NCBI GenBank assembly: GCA_964355645.1
Contig: CAYHDI010000003.1
Span: forward strand, 887-64,886
Reading direction: 5' to 3'
Origin: an uncultured Candidatus Saccharibacteria bacterium
Lineage (GTDB): Bacteria > Patescibacteriota > Minisyncoccia > Phycocordibacterales > Zambryskibacteraceae
DNA length: 64,000 nt
Under the pieces are notes generated by a model. It saw nothing but the letters and a program-made list of their open reading frames with translations, was not told the DNA's origin and searched no databases. A program made the position numbers and the translations under genes. Shown in pieces: positions 5,794-18,501 of this stretch (positions are counted from its first letter, which is position 1; each line of letters starts with the position of its first letter).

Positions 5794-6663
5794 ATGAGCA
5801 CTTTATCTGATGAGAAAAGAGTGAAGCTTGAAGAAACTGCGAATAATATTCGCGAGTCGATTATTGAAATGCTGGTAGAAGCGGGGAGCGGGCACACCGC
5901 GGGACCACTCGGGATGGCGGATGTTTTCACTGTTCTATATTTTCATACACTCAAACACGACCCGAAGAATCCTACATGGGAAGAACGAGATAGATTGGTT
6001 CTTTCAAATGGACACATTTGTCCAGTGCTTTATGCCACCATGGCTTATTCTGGATATTTTCCTATTGAAGAATTGAAAACTTTGCGCAAATTCGGTTCAA
6101 GACTTCAAGGTCACCCACATAGAGATTTTCTCCCGATGGTTGAAACGAGTTCAGGTCCACTCGGTTCAGGACTTTCTCAAGCTGTCGGTATGGCCCTCGC
6201 AGACAAAATGGATAATGGGACGAATACCGGAAGAAGAATTTATTGTTTGATGTCTGATGGGGAATGCGAAGAAGGACAAACGTGGGAAGCGGCCATGCTC
6301 GGAGGAAAAAATAAATTAAATAATCTCGTGGCTGTAGTGGATAGAAACAATATTCAAATTGATGGCTATACCGAAGAGGTCATGCCTCTCGAATCCTTCT
6401 CGGACAAATGGCGGGCATGGAATTGGCACGTGATAGAAATTGACGGACACAATATGGAAGAGATCGCCGATGCGTTCGAGATGGCCAAAACGATTTTTGA
6501 GAAGCCGACTATGATTATTGCCCACACTATCCCGGGCAAAGGGGTGAAAGAATTCGAACGAGATTATCGTTGGCACGGCAAGCCACCAACCAAGGAAGAA
6601 GGCCTAATGGCCATTAATGAACTTCGAACTTTGGGTGGAAAAATAAGAAGTGAACATCAATAG
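5794..6663 (+). CDS. Transketolase, N-terminal subunit (split tkt)
   Basis: TPP-binding GSGHTAGPLGMADVF, GHICPVLYA; 289 aa matches split-transketolase N section. Confidence 0.85.
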   Translation: MSTLSDEKRVKLEETANNIRESIIEMLVEAGSGHTAGPLGMADVFTVLYFHTLKHDPKNPTWEERDRLVLSNGHICPVLYATMAYSGYFPIEELKTLRKFGSRLQGHPHRDFLPMVETSSGPLGSGLSQAVGMALADKMDNGTNTGRRIYCLMSDGECEEGQTWEAAMLGGKNKLNNLVAVVDRNNIQIDGYTEEVMPLESFSDKWRAWNWHVIEIDGHNMEEIADAFEMAKTIFEKPTMIIAHTIPGKGVKEFERDYRWHGKPPTKEEGLMAINELRTLGGKIRSEHQ

Positions 6664-7657
6664 TATGTTAAACAAAGATTTAAAACTAAATACAAAAATG
6701 TTCGAAACGGATGTCGAACAAATTCCAATTCGCAAGGGATTCGGTCAGGGTCTTGTACTCGCAGGTGAGAAAAATCCACAAGTGGTTGCTTTGTGTGCAG
6801 ATTTGACTGAATCAGCCCAAGCACTGGCGTTCAAAGAAAAGTTTCCGAACCGTTTCGTAGAGCTCGGAGTGGCTGAACAAAACATGGCGAGTGTGGCGAG
6901 CGGAATGGCAGCCATGGGCAAGATTCCTTTTATTATTTCTTATGCCATTTTTTCTCCAGGAAGAAATTGGGAACAAATCAGAACTACGATTGCTTATAAT
7001 AATCGCCCAGTAAAGATTGTTGGTTCACATGCCGGCATTTCTGTAGGACCGGACGGCGGGACACATCAAGCGATTGAGGATTTGGCCATCACTCGCGTGA
7101 TTCCCCGAATGATGGTGATTTCTCCGTGTGATGCAATTGAGGCGAAGAAAGCGACGGTAGCTTGCATTGGTGTTGATGCACCAGTTTATATCCGTTTGGC
7201 CCGCGAGAAAACCCCAGTGATGACCACGGAAGAAACTCCGTTTGAAATAGGCAAAGCTCAAATCTTTTGGACTCCGCCAACTGGCGGATCAAAACCAAAA
7301 GTAGGAATCATTGCAACGGGTGCCCTTCTTCACAAAGCTCTTTCAGTGGCACAAACTTTGGAGAAAGATGGAGTCGGGGTTGAAGTGATGAATCTCTCGA
7401 CCATTAAGCCGTTGGACGAAGATGCCATCATTGCTCTAGCCAAGAAAACCGGGAAAATTGTGACCGTAGAAGAACATCAAATTCGAGGCGGAATGGGCTC
7501 TGCTGTGGCAGAATGTCTAGTCAAGCATTTCCCCGTACCTATGAAATTTATTGGTGTGGATGACCAATTTGGTCAATCTGGTACTCCAGAAGAATTGATT
7601 GAACATTATGGAATGGGGGAGAAAGATATTTTGAAAGCGGTGAGAGAATTAATCTAG
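6650..7657 (+). CDS. Transketolase, C-terminal subunit (split tkt)
   Basis: pyrimidine-binding and C-terminal transketolase domains (EQNMASVASGMA..., ISVGPDGGTHQAIEDLA); overlaps N-subunit gene; true start may be 6665 or 6716. Confidence 0.85.
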   Translation: MNINSMLNKDLKLNTKMFETDVEQIPIRKGFGQGLVLAGEKNPQVVALCADLTESAQALAFKEKFPNRFVELGVAEQNMASVASGMAAMGKIPFIISYAIFSPGRNWEQIRTTIAYNNRPVKIVGSHAGISVGPDGGTHQAIEDLAITRVIPRMMVISPCDAIEAKKATVACIGVDAPVYIRLAREKTPVMTTEETPFEIGKAQIFWTPPTGGSKPKVGIIATGALLHKALSVAQTLEKDGVGVEVMNLSTIKPLDEDAIIALAKKTGKIVTVEEHQIRGGMGSAVAECLVKHFPVPMKFIGVDDQFGQSGTPEELIEHYGMGEKDILKAVRELI

Positions 7658-14694: not shown

Positions 14695-14904
14695 ATGACC
14701 ACATTATCAATTCCAGTTTCAGGAGAGCTTCAAAAATTTATAGAGAGAATGGTGAAGGAGGGCAAGGGTGCCAATAAGGCAGATGTTGTTCGTCGTGCGC
14801 TCAATGCTTATTCAGAAAACGAGGCTGTTGAAGCAGTTTTGCGTGCTCAGGCAGAGCCAAATCTAAAGGGTGACCTTCGAACTCTGATGAAGAAATTCAA
14901 ATAG
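14695..14904 (+). CDS. Ribbon-helix-helix type II antitoxin (ParD/CopG-like)
   Basis: 69 aa; pattern LSIPVSGELQKFIERMVKEGKGANKADVVRRALNAY resembles ParD/COG3609 antitoxins; 2-nt gap to toxin gene. Confidence 0.55.
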   Translation: MTTLSIPVSGELQKFIERMVKEGKGANKADVVRRALNAYSENEAVEAVLRAQAEPNLKGDLRTLMKKFK

Positions 14905-14906
14905 GC

Positions 14907-15167
14907 ATGATTAAGATATTTTTCAGACCCACATTTGTTCGTCAAGTAAATAAACTCGATGAGGATTTGATCGAAGAAGTTCACGAGAAAATAGAATTTT
15001 TCAAACATAAAAAGAATCACGAAATGCTCAAGGTTCACAAACTGCATGGGAGGTTTTCTAACTGTCTTAGTTTTTCTGTAAATTACAAGGTTAGAATTGT
15101 TTTTGAATATTGTTCAGCAAATGAAGTTGCTTTTCTTGCCATAGGAGGTCATGACGTGTACAAATAA
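14907..15167 (+). CDS. RelE/ParE-family type II toxin
   Basis: 86 aa; C-terminal HKLHGRF...SFSVNYKVRIVFEY...EVAFLAIGGHDVYK matches RelE/ParE fold signature. Confidence 0.65.
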   Translation: MIKIFFRPTFVRQVNKLDEDLIEEVHEKIEFFKHKKNHEMLKVHKLHGRFSNCLSFSVNYKVRIVFEYCSANEVAFLAIGGHDVYK

Positions 15168-15195: not shown

Positions 15196-17064
15196 ATGAA
15201 ATCCGAGAGCTTTCTCCCAGAGAAATATCCCAATATGGCTGGCACTAAACCAGTAGAGAGAGCGGTAGACAAATCCTTTAGACAAGGAGAACAAGGCCCA
15301 AGGGGTAAAGAAGACAGAATCGAAAGATATTTAAGTAGATTAGACCATATAGTCGAAGACGAAAGGGGTTGGGAATTACTTAAACACAAAATCATCAAGG
15401 AATTTTCTATTGATGCTGACGATGAAGAAACACTCACCAAAGTGGCTCATGGTCTATACGAATCAGAGAAGAGAATTGCTATAGAACAAGGTAGGGGGCG
15501 AGACATAGAACAATTGGGTAGTGATGAAGAAATCATCAACAAGTACAAAACCCTTGTTCATGAGAAACAAGATATCCAAGAGAAATCTCTAGCCACTTGG
15601 CTTGATTATCTAGAACAAAACGATGCCGAGTATCCCACTTGGTTTAGATATTTCGTAGTCCGTAACCTCGAGAAGATGGGTAGTATGGACAAAGAAAGAG
15701 GTGAATATACCAAACGTACTTCATACACCGTTGCTCCCTTCCCAGAACTTAACTCTGAAGCACTTGGTTTCGTGTATAGAGTCCTCACTCAAGGTATCGG
15801 CCATGAATTCGACGACGATGAATCACAAAAAGGCACTATCGAATCACTCATAAAGAAGAAAGACTTTTCTAAACTCTATACCTTCGCCCAAATAGAAACA
15901 GCTGGTCAACTCAACAAAGAATCCATCGAAGGTGAATGGGTGAAATATGACCAAGGTTCAGACCATCATATCCTTGAGCAAGCTCTGCGAGGCAAGGGCA
16001 CAGGTTGGTGTACAGCCGAAGGTTCTGCTTATGCTCATCTTCAAGGTGGAGATTTCTATGTCTATTATTCCAAAGGTCCAAATGGTGTATTCACTGAACC
16101 CAGAATCGCTATCCGTATGGACGGAGACAATCTAGGAGAAGTCCGAGGAGTAAATCAGAGACAAGAACTCGAACCCCAACTTATCAGTATTGCTGAAGAT
16201 AAATATCATTCTCTTCCGGGAGGAGAGAAATATGATAAGAAATCACAAGATATGAAAATGGTCACCAAACTCGTGAAGAAACAAGAAAAAGGTGAAAAGT
16301 TTACCAAAGACGACCTAATCTTTCTCTATGAACTCAATTCTCCTATAGAAGGTTTCGGTTACCAACGGGATCCTCGTATAGAGGAACTAAAAAGGGTGAG
16401 AAATCAAACGAGGGGAAAGCTTTCAGAAGATTTATGTATTATTTTTGAATGTACCCCAGACCAATTTGCATACAGTAAAGAAGGTTTAAACAAAAATACC
16501 AAAGTCTACATCGGAGAATGGACACCAGAAGTGCTCAAACTTATACCAGAATCATGTACCCACATCTACGAATACCAAGGGTTCCCAGACAAAAAAGTCT
16601 TTCTCAGAACTCTTGAAACTGACCCATCTATCCAATCACCCGAAGAGGCAGAGAAAGCTCTACTAAACAAGGGTTATCAGATTTCAGATTACGCTCGAGA
16701 TATTTTACAAAAAGTTGAATTCAGCCAAGAAAGCAAATCATATGAATTAGTCTCTTTTTCTGTCTCCCAACTTGGTTTTCCAAATGGTGCCACATTACAA
16801 GAGGTATATAAGAAAGCAGAAGAACTTGGTCTAGAACTCTGTCCAGCTGAGGTTGGGCCACAATTACGTTTGCAATATAAAGATCAACCAGAAGGAGAAT
16901 GGTTAAGGATTGCTATGAATCCTATTGCCGACTCGGGTGGCTTCCCGGACTTGTTCGACGTCCGTCGCGCGGGTGACGTGCTGTGGTTGCGCCGCGGCGA
17001 TGGTCGTCTCGACGACGGGTGGCGTGGCCGTCGCTTCGTTTTCCTCCGTCGCAAGTCTCTTTGA
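15196..17064 (+). CDS. Hypothetical 622-aa protein; candidate diversity-generating-retroelement target with C-terminal variable repeat
   Basis: no recognisable domain in N-terminal 570 aa; last ~45 codons are a GC-rich, Arg/Gly/Asp-rich module (…LWLRRGDGRLDDGWRGRRFVFLRRKSL) duplicated downstream with adenine-specific differences. Confidence 0.6.
   Translation: MKSESFLPEKYPNMAGTKPVERAVDKSFRQGEQGPRGKEDRIERYLSRLDHIVEDERGWELLKHKIIKEFSIDADDEETLTKVAHGLYESEKRIAIEQGRGRDIEQLGSDEEIINKYKTLVHEKQDIQEKSLATWLDYLEQNDAEYPTWFRYFVVRNLEKMGSMDKERGEYTKRTSYTVAPFPELNSEALGFVYRVLTQGIGHEFDDDESQKGTIESLIKKKDFSKLYTFAQIETAGQLNKESIEGEWVKYDQGSDHHILEQALRGKGTGWCTAEGSAYAHLQGGDFYVYYSKGPNGVFTEPRIAIRMDGDNLGEVRGVNQRQELEPQLISIAEDKYHSLPGGEKYDKKSQDMKMVTKLVKKQEKGEKFTKDDLIFLYELNSPIEGFGYQRDPRIEELKRVRNQTRGKLSEDLCIIFECTPDQFAYSKEGLNKNTKVYIGEWTPEVLKLIPESCTHIYEYQGFPDKKVFLRTLETDPSIQSPEEAEKALLNKGYQISDYARDILQKVEFSQESKSYELVSFSVSQLGFPNGATLQEVYKKAEELGLELCPAEVGPQLRLQYKDQPEGEWLRIAMNPIADSGGFPDLFDVRRAGDVLWLRRGDGRLDDGWRGRRFVFLRRKSL
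16921..17061 (+). repeat. Candidate DGR variable repeat (VR) at 3' end of the 622-aa gene
   Basis: ~140-nt repeat; differs from the downstream copy almost only at positions where that copy has A. Confidence 0.6.
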
Positions 17065-17130
17065 CCTTAGACCTTTTGCCCCTTTGGATTTTGAATTTTG
17101 CCCTTAGCCCCTTAGACACTTAGACCTTCG

Positions 17131-17165
17131 GCCACGACCTCCGTGTCGTGGCCGATTTTCTTTTT
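17131..17165 (+). terminator. GC-rich hairpin (ggccacgac-ctccgt-gtcgtggcc) plus T-run downstream of the 622-aa gene
   Basis: 9-bp perfect stem followed by attttcttttt; could also be the cruciform that DGR target sites carry 3' of the VR. Confidence 0.55.
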
Positions 17166-17440
17166 AGATTTTGCTACAATAATAGATGGTAGTAGATGAA
17201 TATGCCGGCGGTCAAGGCTTCTGGCTACCAAACCCAGTATCCATGTATCGAGAATGTCTGCGATCAAGGTTTCAGACAGAGTGGTAGCATGGGGAACTTC
17301 AGTGAAAAAATGAAGGAACTTGGTGCAGTGTGCTAAGGTATTATGATACCGAAAACAGGCGGAACCTCCGCAGACAGCTTAGAAGTTAGCCAAAATGTTT
17401 CAGGCTCTCACGCTAGGCAGTGATATGGACGGCACTTTGC

Positions 17441-17586
17441 ATATTACCGACTCGGATGGCAACCCGAACTTGTTCAACGTCAATCGCGACGATGACGAGC
17501 TGTGGTTGAACAACGACGATGGTCGTCTCGACAACAGGTGGAATGGCAACAATCGCTTCGTTTTCCTCCGTCGCAAATCTCTTCAT
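17441..17586 (+). repeat. Candidate DGR template repeat (TR); ORF-track 17395..17652 reads through it
   Basis: Asn(AAC/AAT)-rich copy of the VR; A positions correspond to variable positions in the VR; 3' ~30 nt (cgcttcgttttcctccgtcgcaa) nearly identical to VR end. Confidence 0.6.
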
Positions 17587-17589
17587 TTC

Positions 17590-17620
17590 TCCTCAATTTC
17601 GGTTGAGGAGTTTTGTTTTA
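17590..17620 (+). terminator. Hairpin ctcctcaatttcggttgaggag + TTTTGTTTT immediately after the TR copy
   Basis: 8-bp stem, T-rich tail. Confidence 0.45.
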
Positions 17621-17745
17621 TTATTATGATTATTATTTACCAATACATCTAATTCACGCTATAAGCGAGATATTAACGTATGAGGTTTGTTCGGGGTGAA
17701 GAATTGCAATAAAATGGCTATTTTGCTACAATATCCCGACAATTT

Positions 17746-18501
17746 ATGACAGATAAAGCCATAATAAATGACCCAAAAATTAATGAACTCTTCAAGGCAG
17801 GGGCTCATTTTGGCTTTGTGAAAAGTCGTCGGCATCCTTCAGCTAAGGAATTCATCTTTGGGATAAAAAACAAAATAGAAATATTTGATTTAGAGAAAGT
17901 TAAGCTTGAACTTGAGAAAGCCTTGAAATTCATAGAAGACAAAGGTTCCGTCGCCTCTCCAATTCTCTTTGTTGGTGGCAAATCAGAAGCCCGAAAATCT
18001 GTAGAAAAGGCTGGCCGAGAACTTTCTATGCCCTTTGTTTCCGGACGATGGATTGGAGGGACGCTTACTAACTTTCCAGAAATCAAGAAGCGCATAAATA
18101 AACTCGAAGAACTTTTGAGTCAGAAAGAGAAAGGAGAATTAGGAAAATATACAAAAAAAGAACGTTTGCTAATTGACCGAGATATAGCCAAGCTCACTAT
18201 ATTTTTCAGTGGACTTTCTACCATGAAAGCACTTCCTAAGGTGGTAGTTGTTGTTGACCCAAAGAAAGAACATATCGTAGTTTCAGAAGCTAAGGCCATG
18301 AAAATTCCTGTGGTGGCCCTCGCCGGAAGCGATTGTGACTTGCACGCCATCGACTTTGCCATTCCGGCGAATGATTCTTCTCAAGCCAGCATCTCATTCA
18401 TTATTTCTGAAATAATTTCTGCTTATAAAAACGGTCTAGCTCGACAGAAACCCGTCGAACCCACCACCGAATCGGCGGGCAGGGAACCGAAAACTTTATA
18501 G
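17746..18501 (+). CDS. rpsB: 30S ribosomal protein S2
   Basis: FKAGAHFGF..RRHP signature; upstream TTGCAA-N17-TACAAT promoter-like sequence at ~17704-17732. Confidence 0.9.
   Translation: MTDKAIINDPKINELFKAGAHFGFVKSRRHPSAKEFIFGIKNKIEIFDLEKVKLELEKALKFIEDKGSVASPILFVGGKSEARKSVEKAGRELSMPFVSGRWIGGTLTNFPEIKKRINKLEELLSQKEKGELGKYTKKERLLIDRDIAKLTIFFSGLSTMKALPKVVVVVDPKKEHIVVSEAKAMKIPVVALAGSDCDLHAIDFAIPANDSSQASISFIISEIISAYKNGLARQKPVEPTTESAGREPKTL

Follow-up and report, generated by a model that had tools for sequence, protein, structure and literature searches.

The closest described systems are the diversity-generating retroelements (DGRs) of Patescibacteria (CPR), which correspond to reverse transcriptase (RT) clade 2 (Roux et al. 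2021, PMC8144416) and the “CPR set” (Wu et al. 2018, PMC5758913). Like these DGRs, the locus described here shows adenine-specific differences between a template repeat (TR) and a variable repeat (VR), and carries the VR at the 3′ end of a target gene whose product combines an N-terminal part without a recognisable domain with a predicted CLec-type C-terminal domain; relatives of the locus also contain a bAvd-like accessory gene and an RVT_1 RT. Unlike these DGRs, it lies between prfA and rpsB and has neither RT nor Avd in about 74 kb. In the DGR of Bordetella phage BPP-1 (mtd-avd-TR-brt), avd, TR and brt follow in this order on one strand, whereas Avd, where present in the family studied here, is antisense. 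The RNA element needed for priming in BPP-1 (the spacer) is reportedly located 3′ of the TR, a finding said to be that of Handa et al. in 2018; in contrast, the conserved structured element of the present locus is located 5′ of the TR, and a terminator approximately 6 nt past the repeat closes the TR RNA. The locus also resembles remote-target and incomplete DGRs (Treponema, Legionella, Trichodesmium; Thiohalocapsa PB-PSB1), in which components act far from the RT and redundant parts of duplicated loci decay, and trans use of incomplete DGR loci was inferred in Thiohalocapsa PB-PSB1 (Dore et al. 2024, PMC10907252). In classical remote-target DGRs, however, the remote VR uses the TR beside the RT, whereas the remote unit here has its own dedicated TR RNA gene, which would require the RT to use a second template RNA to which it is not linked. 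The leader of this RNA is comparable to the RT-associated RNA motifs RT-1 to RT-19, which are covarying non-coding RNAs beside bacterial RT genes (Weinberg et al. 2017, PMC5737381), but it matches no curated Rfam model: for positions 16800-17800, no known family, RT-1 to RT-19 among them, was found at E ≤ 5 beyond chance-level matches.

Repeat pair and target gene

The features of the locus, which is part of a 64-kb stretch of DNA analysed as a whole (the window), are listed in Table 1. Local alignment paired the VR at the end of the target gene with the downstream TR. The aligned core contains 25 mismatches, 24 of which have A in the TR and G, C or T in the VR; sorted by TR base, 24 of 34 A sites differ vs 1 of 107 non-A sites (Fisher p = 3.9e-18), and the binomial probability that at least 24 of 25 mismatches fall on A is 2.9e-14. 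Codon positions 1 or 2 hold 23 of the 25. The preliminary description of this DNA had noticed the adenine-specific divergence between gene end and downstream copy, with only one non-A substitution and one 3-nt indel, and had stated that a DGR predicts more than 90% of mismatches at TR adenines. Tabulation gave 24/25 (96%), and the two exceptions were located as TR C17490 / VR G16971 and as a single gap caused by an extra TR codon near 17548-17550; the translations given earlier for the TR (...LWLNNDDGRLDNRWNGNNRFVFLRRKSL) and the VR (...LWLRRGDGRLDDGWRGRRFVFLRRKSL) were the same in the re-analysis. TR/VR differences confined almost entirely to template adenines are a defining property of DGRs. 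The 3′ ~30 nt had been described as nearly invariant, and the last 31 nt are indeed identical except for one A-to-G difference (17577/17055). Exactly two copies of the 3′ 23-mer CGCTTCGTTTTCCTCCGTCGCAA are present in the window, against an expectation of 0, and this IMH-like end is also conserved in the VRs and TRs of the corresponding loci of two other species (L094 and L007). We infer from the sequence that the 3′ end of the VR may act as an IMH.

Table 1. Positions of the DGR features within the window.
Feature	Position	Strand	Remarks
DGR target gene, 622 aa	15196-17064	+	conserved ~425-aa N-terminal region and C-terminal ~200-aa region carrying the VR
Variable repeat (VR)	16921-17061	+	last 47 codons of the 622-aa target; 24/25 mismatches opposite TR adenines
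Nearly invariant VR 3′ end, IMH-like	17031-17061	+	TR counterpart 17553-17583
CTTWRR motif array (CTTAGA/CTTTGG)	17066-17124	+	directly 3′ of the stop codon; four copies
GC-rich hairpin (11-bp stem) and T-run	17128-17165	+	target-gene terminator; terminator scan puts the hairpin at 17128-17155
Extended -10 promoter (TGCTACAAT) of the TR unit	17172-17180	+	predicted, read from sequence
Structured leader RNA of the TR unit	17192-17360	+	covariance-model match 123.7 bits, E = 7e-30
Template repeat (TR)	17440-17583	+	adenine-rich, 36 A/144, AAC/AAT codons
Intrinsic terminator ending the TR RNA	17589-17620	+	terminator scan, hairpin 17589-17610

Two ~140-nt direct repeats located 520 nt apart could also have arisen by ordinary segmental duplication and divergence, or by gene conversion, with no retroelement involved. 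However, the differences are concentrated on template adenines (Fisher p = 4e-18), and the downstream copy is part of a conserved RNA unit that more than 30 relatives have directly before bAvd and RT. Both findings speak against this explanation, and gene conversion would erase adenine-site differences rather than preserve them. This explanation can be considered refuted.

Structure prediction assigned a C-type-lectin fold to the C-terminal ~200 aa of the target, placing the VR within a predicted domain of the kind (C-type-lectin or Ig-fold) that DGR targets carry at the C-terminus. The target had been called surface-protein-like with the VR at its C-terminus; the position of the VR was borne out, but the surface-like character was not, as no signal peptide or transmembrane segment was found in the 622-aa protein, which appears to be a soluble, conserved protein widespread in Patescibacteria. 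Downstream of the stop codon, the CTTWRR motif has a mean density in the family of 2.8 per 100 nt vs 0.29 in shuffles. The 11-bp GC hairpin found 67 nt past the VR is likewise conserved in L094 and L007. Besides being the terminator of the gene, it is a possible DGR target-site hairpin, with a putative role in homing suggested by the comparable hairpin of the Bordetella phage (PMC3240598). The GC hairpin after the gene and the separate terminator of the downstream copy, both mentioned in the preliminary description, correspond to the terminator-like hairpins detected at 17128-17155 and 17589-17610.

TR transcription unit and cassette organisation

The TR is predicted to be its own small non-coding RNA gene, in which an extended -10 promoter precedes a ~170-nt leader and the TR, and a terminator closes the unit. 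The consensus TGnTAnAnT is kept at the promoter position in 45 aligned units, and the promoter 14-mer is found again at the rpsB promoter (17720-17733). The leader consists of two hairpins (apical CGGyyAyGGyTT), an enclosing stem, an A-rich single strand with ACTTGGT and a 3′ hairpin; its covariance model has a single match in the window. Alignment of 39 loci revealed 29 pairs, 25 of them with compensatory changes, and 94.9% of cells were paired vs 36-49% in slid controls. The leader core (17232-17335) is 100% identical across the three species (window, L094 and L007). Since the model detects the leader beside the same RT clade in untrained loci, in other target families and in other collections, the leader appears to track its cognate RT clade. 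The stem of the TR terminator shows compensatory changes in L094 and L007, and canonical RT-bearing loci have a terminator at the same position after the TR. The leader directly 5′ of the TR and the intrinsic terminator directly 3′ of it, both present here, define what is termed in this analysis a CPR-type DGR TR unit (leader RNA, TR and terminator). In all loci, the TR RNA is autonomous, with its own promoter and terminator, and Avd is encoded on the opposite strand, implying that the RT-Avd always acts on a separately made RNA. Two ORFs overlapping the unit, of 46 aa (17196-17336) and 85 aa (17395-17652), were rejected as genes because they have no family match and their substitutions follow RNA pairing, not codons. 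Second copies of the leader, the TR or the VR domain were not found elsewhere in the window.

In more than 30 relatives, the cassette has the order target(VR), leader RNA, TR, terminator, antisense bAvd and RT, of which the window contains only the first four parts. Pfam searches of the genes at one such locus, L013, gave bAvd (PF22296) with 43.7 bits and RVT_1 with 87.9 bits, and the RVT_1 RTs of the relatives contain the motifs GLPLGNLTSQ and RYADDF. On the basis of the adenine-specific mismatches, the bAvd and DGR-type RT right after the homologous TR unit in these relatives and the predicted C-type-lectin fold of the VR domain, the locus is firmly identified as a genuine DGR module of the Patescibacteria (CPR) type, as had been proposed from the repeats.

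Possible source of the RT and Avd

The DGR module sits in a core housekeeping region; its neighbours are prfA and two small ORFs with weak antitoxin/toxin Pfam matches, then rpsB and tsf, in agreement with the RF1, toxin-antitoxin pair and rpsB-tsf named before. Neither the RT that DGRs encode within the element nor an Avd was found within about 74 kb, comprising the 64-kb window and 10 kb beyond its end, and the earlier claim that both are missing near the repeat pair was confirmed over this range. Within the window, no RT was detected by a six-frame YxDD scan, by tblastn searches that used 32 cognate DGR RTs as queries (best E = 0.21) or, for the larger ORFs, by Pfam searches or existing annotation, no Avd by tblastn with 38 family Avd sequences (best E = 0.022), and no RT or Avd pseudogene fragments by the YxDD scan, tblastn and Pfam on unannotated ORFs. 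The 10 kb past the window end, reached via the def gene, contain no RT or Avd but only priA-like, mreB, tgt and uvrABC genes. The L013 RT as a query gave more than 8000 matches at E ≤ 1e-30. The two of these that were looked up (P0193 and P0135), whose source pattern resembled that of the window, were rejected as the trans-acting RT, as they are from other genomes and serve a 218-222-aa target in a pilus operon. The genome of the window's organism is absent from the species-representative genome collection, in which the closest relative was 62% identical. A metagenome scan with the leader motif yielded no contigs from well H52 among the matches listed; this well is the habitat of the window's organism.

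The window, L094 and L007 encode targets that are 77-78% identical and share the same junctions down to rpsB, with RT and Avd missing from the locus, indicating that the RT-less state is older than their split. Across these species, third-codon-position identity is 86-93% in the VR vs ~60% elsewhere in the target gene, and the VR differences occur at codon positions 1 and 2 (70-84% identity), the silent sites being uniform. The TRs of L094 and L007 are visibly far better conserved than the intergenic DNA around them, little of which can be aligned. In five columns, L007 has one and the same state in its TR and its VR, different from that in both repeats of the window and L094. In the close relatives L093 and L005, in which the TR has been lost altogether, the VR shows more silent-site drift. 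The VR silent sites are thus homogenised and the TR/VR changes concerted within lineages, which suggests that the VR was still being rewritten after RT and Avd had left the locus. Such homing would be more easily explained by an RT-Avd acting in trans than by a dead remnant. The preliminary description had left open whether the pair is served in trans or decayed; the three-species comparison favours the former, although it is unproven, the RT not having been located in the regions searched.

The module is probably a satellite served in trans by an RT-Avd encoded elsewhere in the genome, and active at least until recently. The RT-Avd complex would recognise the leader-TR RNA and make adenine-mutagenised cDNA from the TR, and this cDNA would replace the VR of the 622-aa target. 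Such a satellite would likely have originated when a redundant Avd-RT pair was lost in a genome with more than one cassette. Precedents for redundancy are locus L191, where two tandem modules have unrelated TRs, one with intact Avd and RT and the other with Avd but only a fragment of the RT, and incomplete DGR loci for which use in trans was inferred in another bacterium (PMC10907252).

Several observations weigh against the trans-served reading and would instead fit a frozen remnant, in which no cognate RT-Avd is left, the VR is the relic of earlier mutagenic homing and the leader-TR unit is in the process of being lost. RT and Avd are absent in about 74 kb, and the sister species L093 and L005 are already without a TR. 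The one non-A mismatch and the codon deletion in the VR relative to the TR indicate that the last homing took place some time ago. The exact target protein, VR included, is encoded by 9 contigs, which represent at least 4 samples, and it is the only member of its 90% cluster; no VR variants or turnover were seen in public assemblies (assemblies, not reads). A population-level VR comparison of L007 with L267 was discarded, as the two are 100% identical over 14.7 kb and are probably the same data. RT-less units are also common, as 13/45 (29%) leader units in a leader-anchored sample from metagenomes, counting units with enough flank, have no intact RT. There is a gradual transition from these units to obvious ruins in which fragments of Avd or RT are left, and the loss of the RT at leader units is often degenerative; in the decayed units L025 and L018, 13/32 and 18/27 mismatches are at A. 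Other RT-less modules, however, are just as clean as the window, with 15/15, 14/15 and 12/12 mismatches at A in L038, L040 and L046, and the window itself, with 96% of its mismatches at A, is as clean as the best RT-bearing loci. Moreover, the RT-less locus persists in three species with an identical leader core and a visibly well-conserved TR while neutral sites are ~40% diverged, and the homogenised silent sites and concerted TR/VR changes need homing after RT and Avd were lost from the locus. The frozen remnant would be tenable only if the trans RT had been lost very recently, and we regard it as unlikely, though still a serious competitor.

A further variant of trans supply, in which the RT-Avd is provided by a phage or plasmid of the organism instead of the chromosome, is considered very improbable. 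DGRs are often phage-borne (PMC5758913, PMC8144416), and RTs of the same clade occur with the same leader RNA beside them on contigs labelled viral by IMG/VR. However, the viral label of these contigs is that of IMG/VR, canonical cassettes of the same target family are found in chromosomal contexts, and a vertically inherited enzyme explains stable purifying selection across three species more easily.

Implications for patescibacterial DGRs

At even chances, in our estimation, patescibacterial DGRs are modular in a wider sense: the portable leader would be a recognition handle, one RT-Avd would serve several autonomous template-RNA genes, each beside its own target at any place on the chromosome, and the window would represent one satellite kept by selection across species without a linked enzyme. 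DGR surveys start from the RT and then look for nearby repeats, so that they miss template-target modules that are not linked to the enzyme, and RT-less units are therefore unreported in published surveys. The leader covariance model provides a means of finding such modules. If the module is served in trans, RT-anchored surveys systematically undercount DGR targets and Patescibacteria have more hypervariable proteins than currently estimated; the enzyme would then recognise its template via a defined, transferable RNA element. The leader is accordingly a candidate RNA for reconstitution and for the engineering of multi-template targeted mutagenesis, and the target, a presumably soluble and conserved protein found widely in Patescibacteria, gains interest.

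Repeat pair and cassette context

Local alignment of the end of the 622-aa target ORF with its downstream copy gave a core with 25 mismatches; in 24 of these, an A of the downstream copy faces G, C or T in the gene. The sole non-A mismatch is C/G at 17490/16971, and the downstream copy is one codon longer (3-nt gap). The adenine-specific divergence of the preliminary description, with its single non-A substitution and one 3-nt indel, was thus confirmed. Tabulation by template base, for which more than 90% of differences had been predicted at A, placed mismatches at 24 of 34 A sites versus 1 of the 107 sites with another base (Fisher p = 3.9e-18), a pattern far above chance; 23 of the 25 occupy codon position 1 or 2. 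This polarity is that expected of a diversity-generating retroelement (DGR), in which the downstream copy serves as template repeat (TR) and the copy within the gene as variable repeat (VR). The window contains exactly two copies of the conserved 3′ 23-mer (chance expectation, none), and a terminator scan found terminator-like hairpins 3′ of both copies, as described earlier.

Features of the module and its surroundings
Feature	Position	Strand	Remark
Small ORF	14695-14904		5′ of target
Small ORF	14907-15167		directly 5′ of target
Target ORF, 622 aa	15196-17064	+	
VR	16921-17061	+	last 47 codons of target; pairs with 17440-17583 in local alignment
CTTWRR array	17066-17124		after VR and stop codon
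Extended -10 box TGnTAnAnT	17172-17180	+	TGCTACAAT; conserved, 5′ of leader RNA
Leader RNA	17192-17360	+	covariance-model match, 123.7 bits; one copy in window
Small hairpin	17358-17371		GGCGGAACCTCCGC; inserted after the leader's 3′ hairpin
TR	17440-17583	+	downstream copy; aligns to VR

DGRs are well documented in CPR bacteria (RT clade 2, PMC8144416; CPR set, PMC5758913). More than 2278 target homologs of ~620 aa, all from Patescibacteria where a source is named, share a strongly conserved N-terminal two-thirds and hypervariable C-termini on the fixed scaffold ...W.L......W....RFVF.RK. A scan of species-representative genomes for the target yielded 80 loci, more than 30 of which contain one common cassette: target with VR, ~450 nt spacer, TR, terminator, an antisense 115-aa gene and a 340-aa reverse transcriptase (RT) with the motifs GLPLGNLTSQLLVNIYMNEFD...RYADDF. 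Pfam assigned the 340-aa gene to RVT_1 (87.9 bits) and the 115-aa gene to the bAvd-like accessory proteins (PF22296, 43.7 bits). The window module is complete through the terminator and has no part of the cassette beyond it. The DGR reading is supported by both the mismatch spectrum and these RT-bearing homologous cassettes.

The C-terminal 198 residues of the target were modelled with a pLDDT of 94.6, and the best Foldseek PDB matches were all C-type lectin domains, albeit weak (E = 0.025-0.4), one of the two folds named in the checks initially suggested. The label "surface-protein-like" was not borne out, since the target has no hydrophobic segment (maximum 19-residue Kyte-Doolittle mean 0.66) and no signal-peptide-like N-terminus was found. 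The CTTWRR array (CTTAGA, CTTTGA, CTTTGG) is present in most family members and recurs within the first 100 nt past the target stop in L007, L013, L025, L028, L030, L031, L094 and other homologous loci; its mean density after the stop is 2.8 per 100 nt versus 0.29 in shuffles. The array might have a part in homing, as a binding or target-site element.

Leader RNA and template transcription unit

The VR-TR spacer is homologous throughout the family. An alignment of 39 loci revealed four helices with 29 pairs, 25 of them with compensatory changes; 94.9% of alignment cells are paired, versus 36-49% after the partners were shifted by one to three columns, and the covariation score exceeded that of every shuffle. 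The fold comprises two hairpins with a shared apical motif (CGGyyAyGGyTT), an enclosing stem and a 3′ hairpin, together with a conserved A-rich single strand and ACTTGGT at its end. As the leader is preceded by the -10 box and a terminator lies 3′ of the TR in all loci, the TR is predicted to be made as its own ~430-nt RNA. Avd is antisense to this RNA; judging from the gene arrangement, even the RT and Avd of a complete cassette would work on an RNA that is transcribed separately. The conserved structured leader lies 5′ of the TR, in contrast to the Bordetella element, whose spacer is reported to lie 3′ of the TR (Handa et al. 2018).

The covariance model derived from these 39 loci also matched copies adjoining RTs of the same clade in loci outside the training set. 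Among them are cassettes with an unrelated 218-222-aa target in a pilus operon, contigs classified as viral, and 87 hits in the 100 metagenome loci searched. No matching Rfam family was found for region 16800-17800. In the pilus cases (L095 8385-10978, L097 1470-4075), the RTs are 69-71% identical to the family RT and the different target lies inside a type IV pilus/T2SS operon, with unchanged architecture (leader, TR, antisense Avd, RT). The IMG/VR contigs L101, L103, L104 and L107, on which the leader RNA lies upstream of an RT of this clade, are either Patescibacteria phages with such DGRs or misclassified cellular fragments.

A 14-mer including the extended -10 box, ATTTTGCTACAATA, lies 5′ of the TR unit (17168-17181) and again 5′ of rpsB (17720-17733), so that the TR RNA may be driven by a housekeeping-strength promoter. 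The small hairpin after the leader occurs only in the window and in L094 (loop CCT to CCC), being absent in L007 and the remaining family.

Enzyme absence and comparison of close relatives

A six-frame scan of the 64-kb window revealed no RT-like YxDD, and tblastn found neither an RT (32 RTs from homologous loci, best E = 0.21) nor an Avd (38 cognate proteins, best E = 0.022). The larger ORFs are all housekeeping genes (ribonucleotide reductase, transketolase, prfA, rpsB, tsf, pheS, gyrB, thrS, dnaE, rnc, smc, rnr, rpoB, rpoC, dnaG, sigma-70, typA, fmt, def). The public contig reaches ~11 kb past the window end, and the first 10 kb of this extension contain a priA-like gene, mreB, tgt and uvrBAC. 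The reported absence of both enzymes near the repeats therefore holds from ~15 kb upstream to ~55 kb downstream of the target. The organism's own RT was not found by RT similarity search, which returned thousands of equally similar proteins; the two looked up belong to other genomes.

In five close relatives, the window included, whose targets are 75% or more identical, the gene order is prfA, two small ORFs, target, rpsB, tsf; none of the five has an RT or Avd within reach. The leader-TR unit is kept in the window, L094 and L007 and lost in L093 and L005, the VR end of L093 being fused to the rpsB promoter region. Sequence from the TR terminator down to rpsB is common to the three TR-bearing species, implying that the RT-less state is older than their split. 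The small ORFs have weak Pfam matches (antitoxin-like ParD/RHH and RelE/HigB-like, each E = 0.02) and are 79-92% identical in L005 and L007, a conservation at least that of rpsB (77%). As rpsB directly follows prfA in L087, the small ORFs, target and TR together resemble an inserted block.

Among the three TR-bearing species, target third codon positions outside the VR are ~60% identical, and 36-38% of same-amino-acid codons there differ. The leader core (17232-17335) is 100% identical, the TRs align with few differences, the TR terminator stem is preserved via compensatory changes, and the flanking intergenic sequence is barely alignable. The VR shows the reverse of the usual pattern, with 86-93% identity at third positions versus only 70-84% at positions 1 and 2; in five alignment columns the TR and VR of L007 share a base unlike that of the other species' TRs and VRs. 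Repeated mutagenic homing would homogenise VR silent sites to the species' own TR and retain differences at adenine sites, and the observed combination points to such homing. By contrast, differences at adenine sites would be lost under ordinary gene conversion. The TR-less contrast points in the same direction: for L094 and L005, the closest pair, identity at VR third positions (0.76) is on a par with the gene background (0.71).

Of the two alternatives initially offered, service in trans is favoured by the three-species comparison and is judged probable, whereas decay into a dead, no longer rewritten remnant is a possible but rather unlikely account. Decay would fit the missing enzymes, the one non-A mismatch and the codon deletion in the VR relative to the TR. 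The exact 622-aa sequence, VR included, occurs on 9 contigs from at least 4 samples, and its 90% cluster has one member (likewise those of proteins P0003 and P0004), which indicates no VR turnover in assembled consensus sequences; rewriting may have stopped recently. Against decay, the leader core is invariant and the TR well conserved while target third positions have diverged, and the window's mismatches at A are as clean as those of the best RT-bearing loci. Other RT-less modules are clean (mismatches at A: L038 15/15, L040 14/15, L046 12/12) or decayed (L018 18/27, L025 13/32, L019 11/21, the last with an RT fragment).

Origin of modules without enzymes

Published DGR surveys are RT-anchored, and remote targets are missed, according to Roux et al. 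(PMC8144416). Here, a metagenome scan was anchored on a leader motif instead, and among the matches listed 45 leader units had 1.5 kb or more of flank on the downstream side. Avd and RT are both intact in 32 of these; the other 13 have nothing (7) or Avd or RT fragments (6). L191 contains two tandem modules with unrelated TRs, each VR matching its own TR only; one has intact Avd and RT and the other Avd with a 125-aa RT fragment, which represents an intermediate stage of enzyme loss. In its VR2 (6158-6296; TR2 6615-6750), an A-to-T change turns template AAG into TAG and truncates the target ORF, so that this DGR appears to have inactivated its own target. L235 has three leader copies in 12.9 kb (508-669, 2379-2546, 7127-7289) and two adenine-biased TR/VR pairs (17/20 and 18/24); over this length RT is absent and Avd persists only as 15-27-aa remnants, which makes this a cluster of RT-less modules. 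The unit counts, L191 and L235 together suggest frequent loss of the redundant enzyme pair in multi-cassette genomes. Degraded redundant DGR components with inferred trans use were described in a different bacterium by Dore et al. (PMC10907252), and CPR genomes often have several DGR loci according to earlier work as cited there.

Compared with known DGRs, what differs here is that the RT-less arrangement is conserved between species and shows signs that homing went on. Remote VRs and avd-TR-brt units working in trans are well documented; the remote unit of the window differs from known remote VRs in that it carries a template RNA gene dedicated to it. The module is a genuine DGR unit, most likely a satellite that is served in trans.
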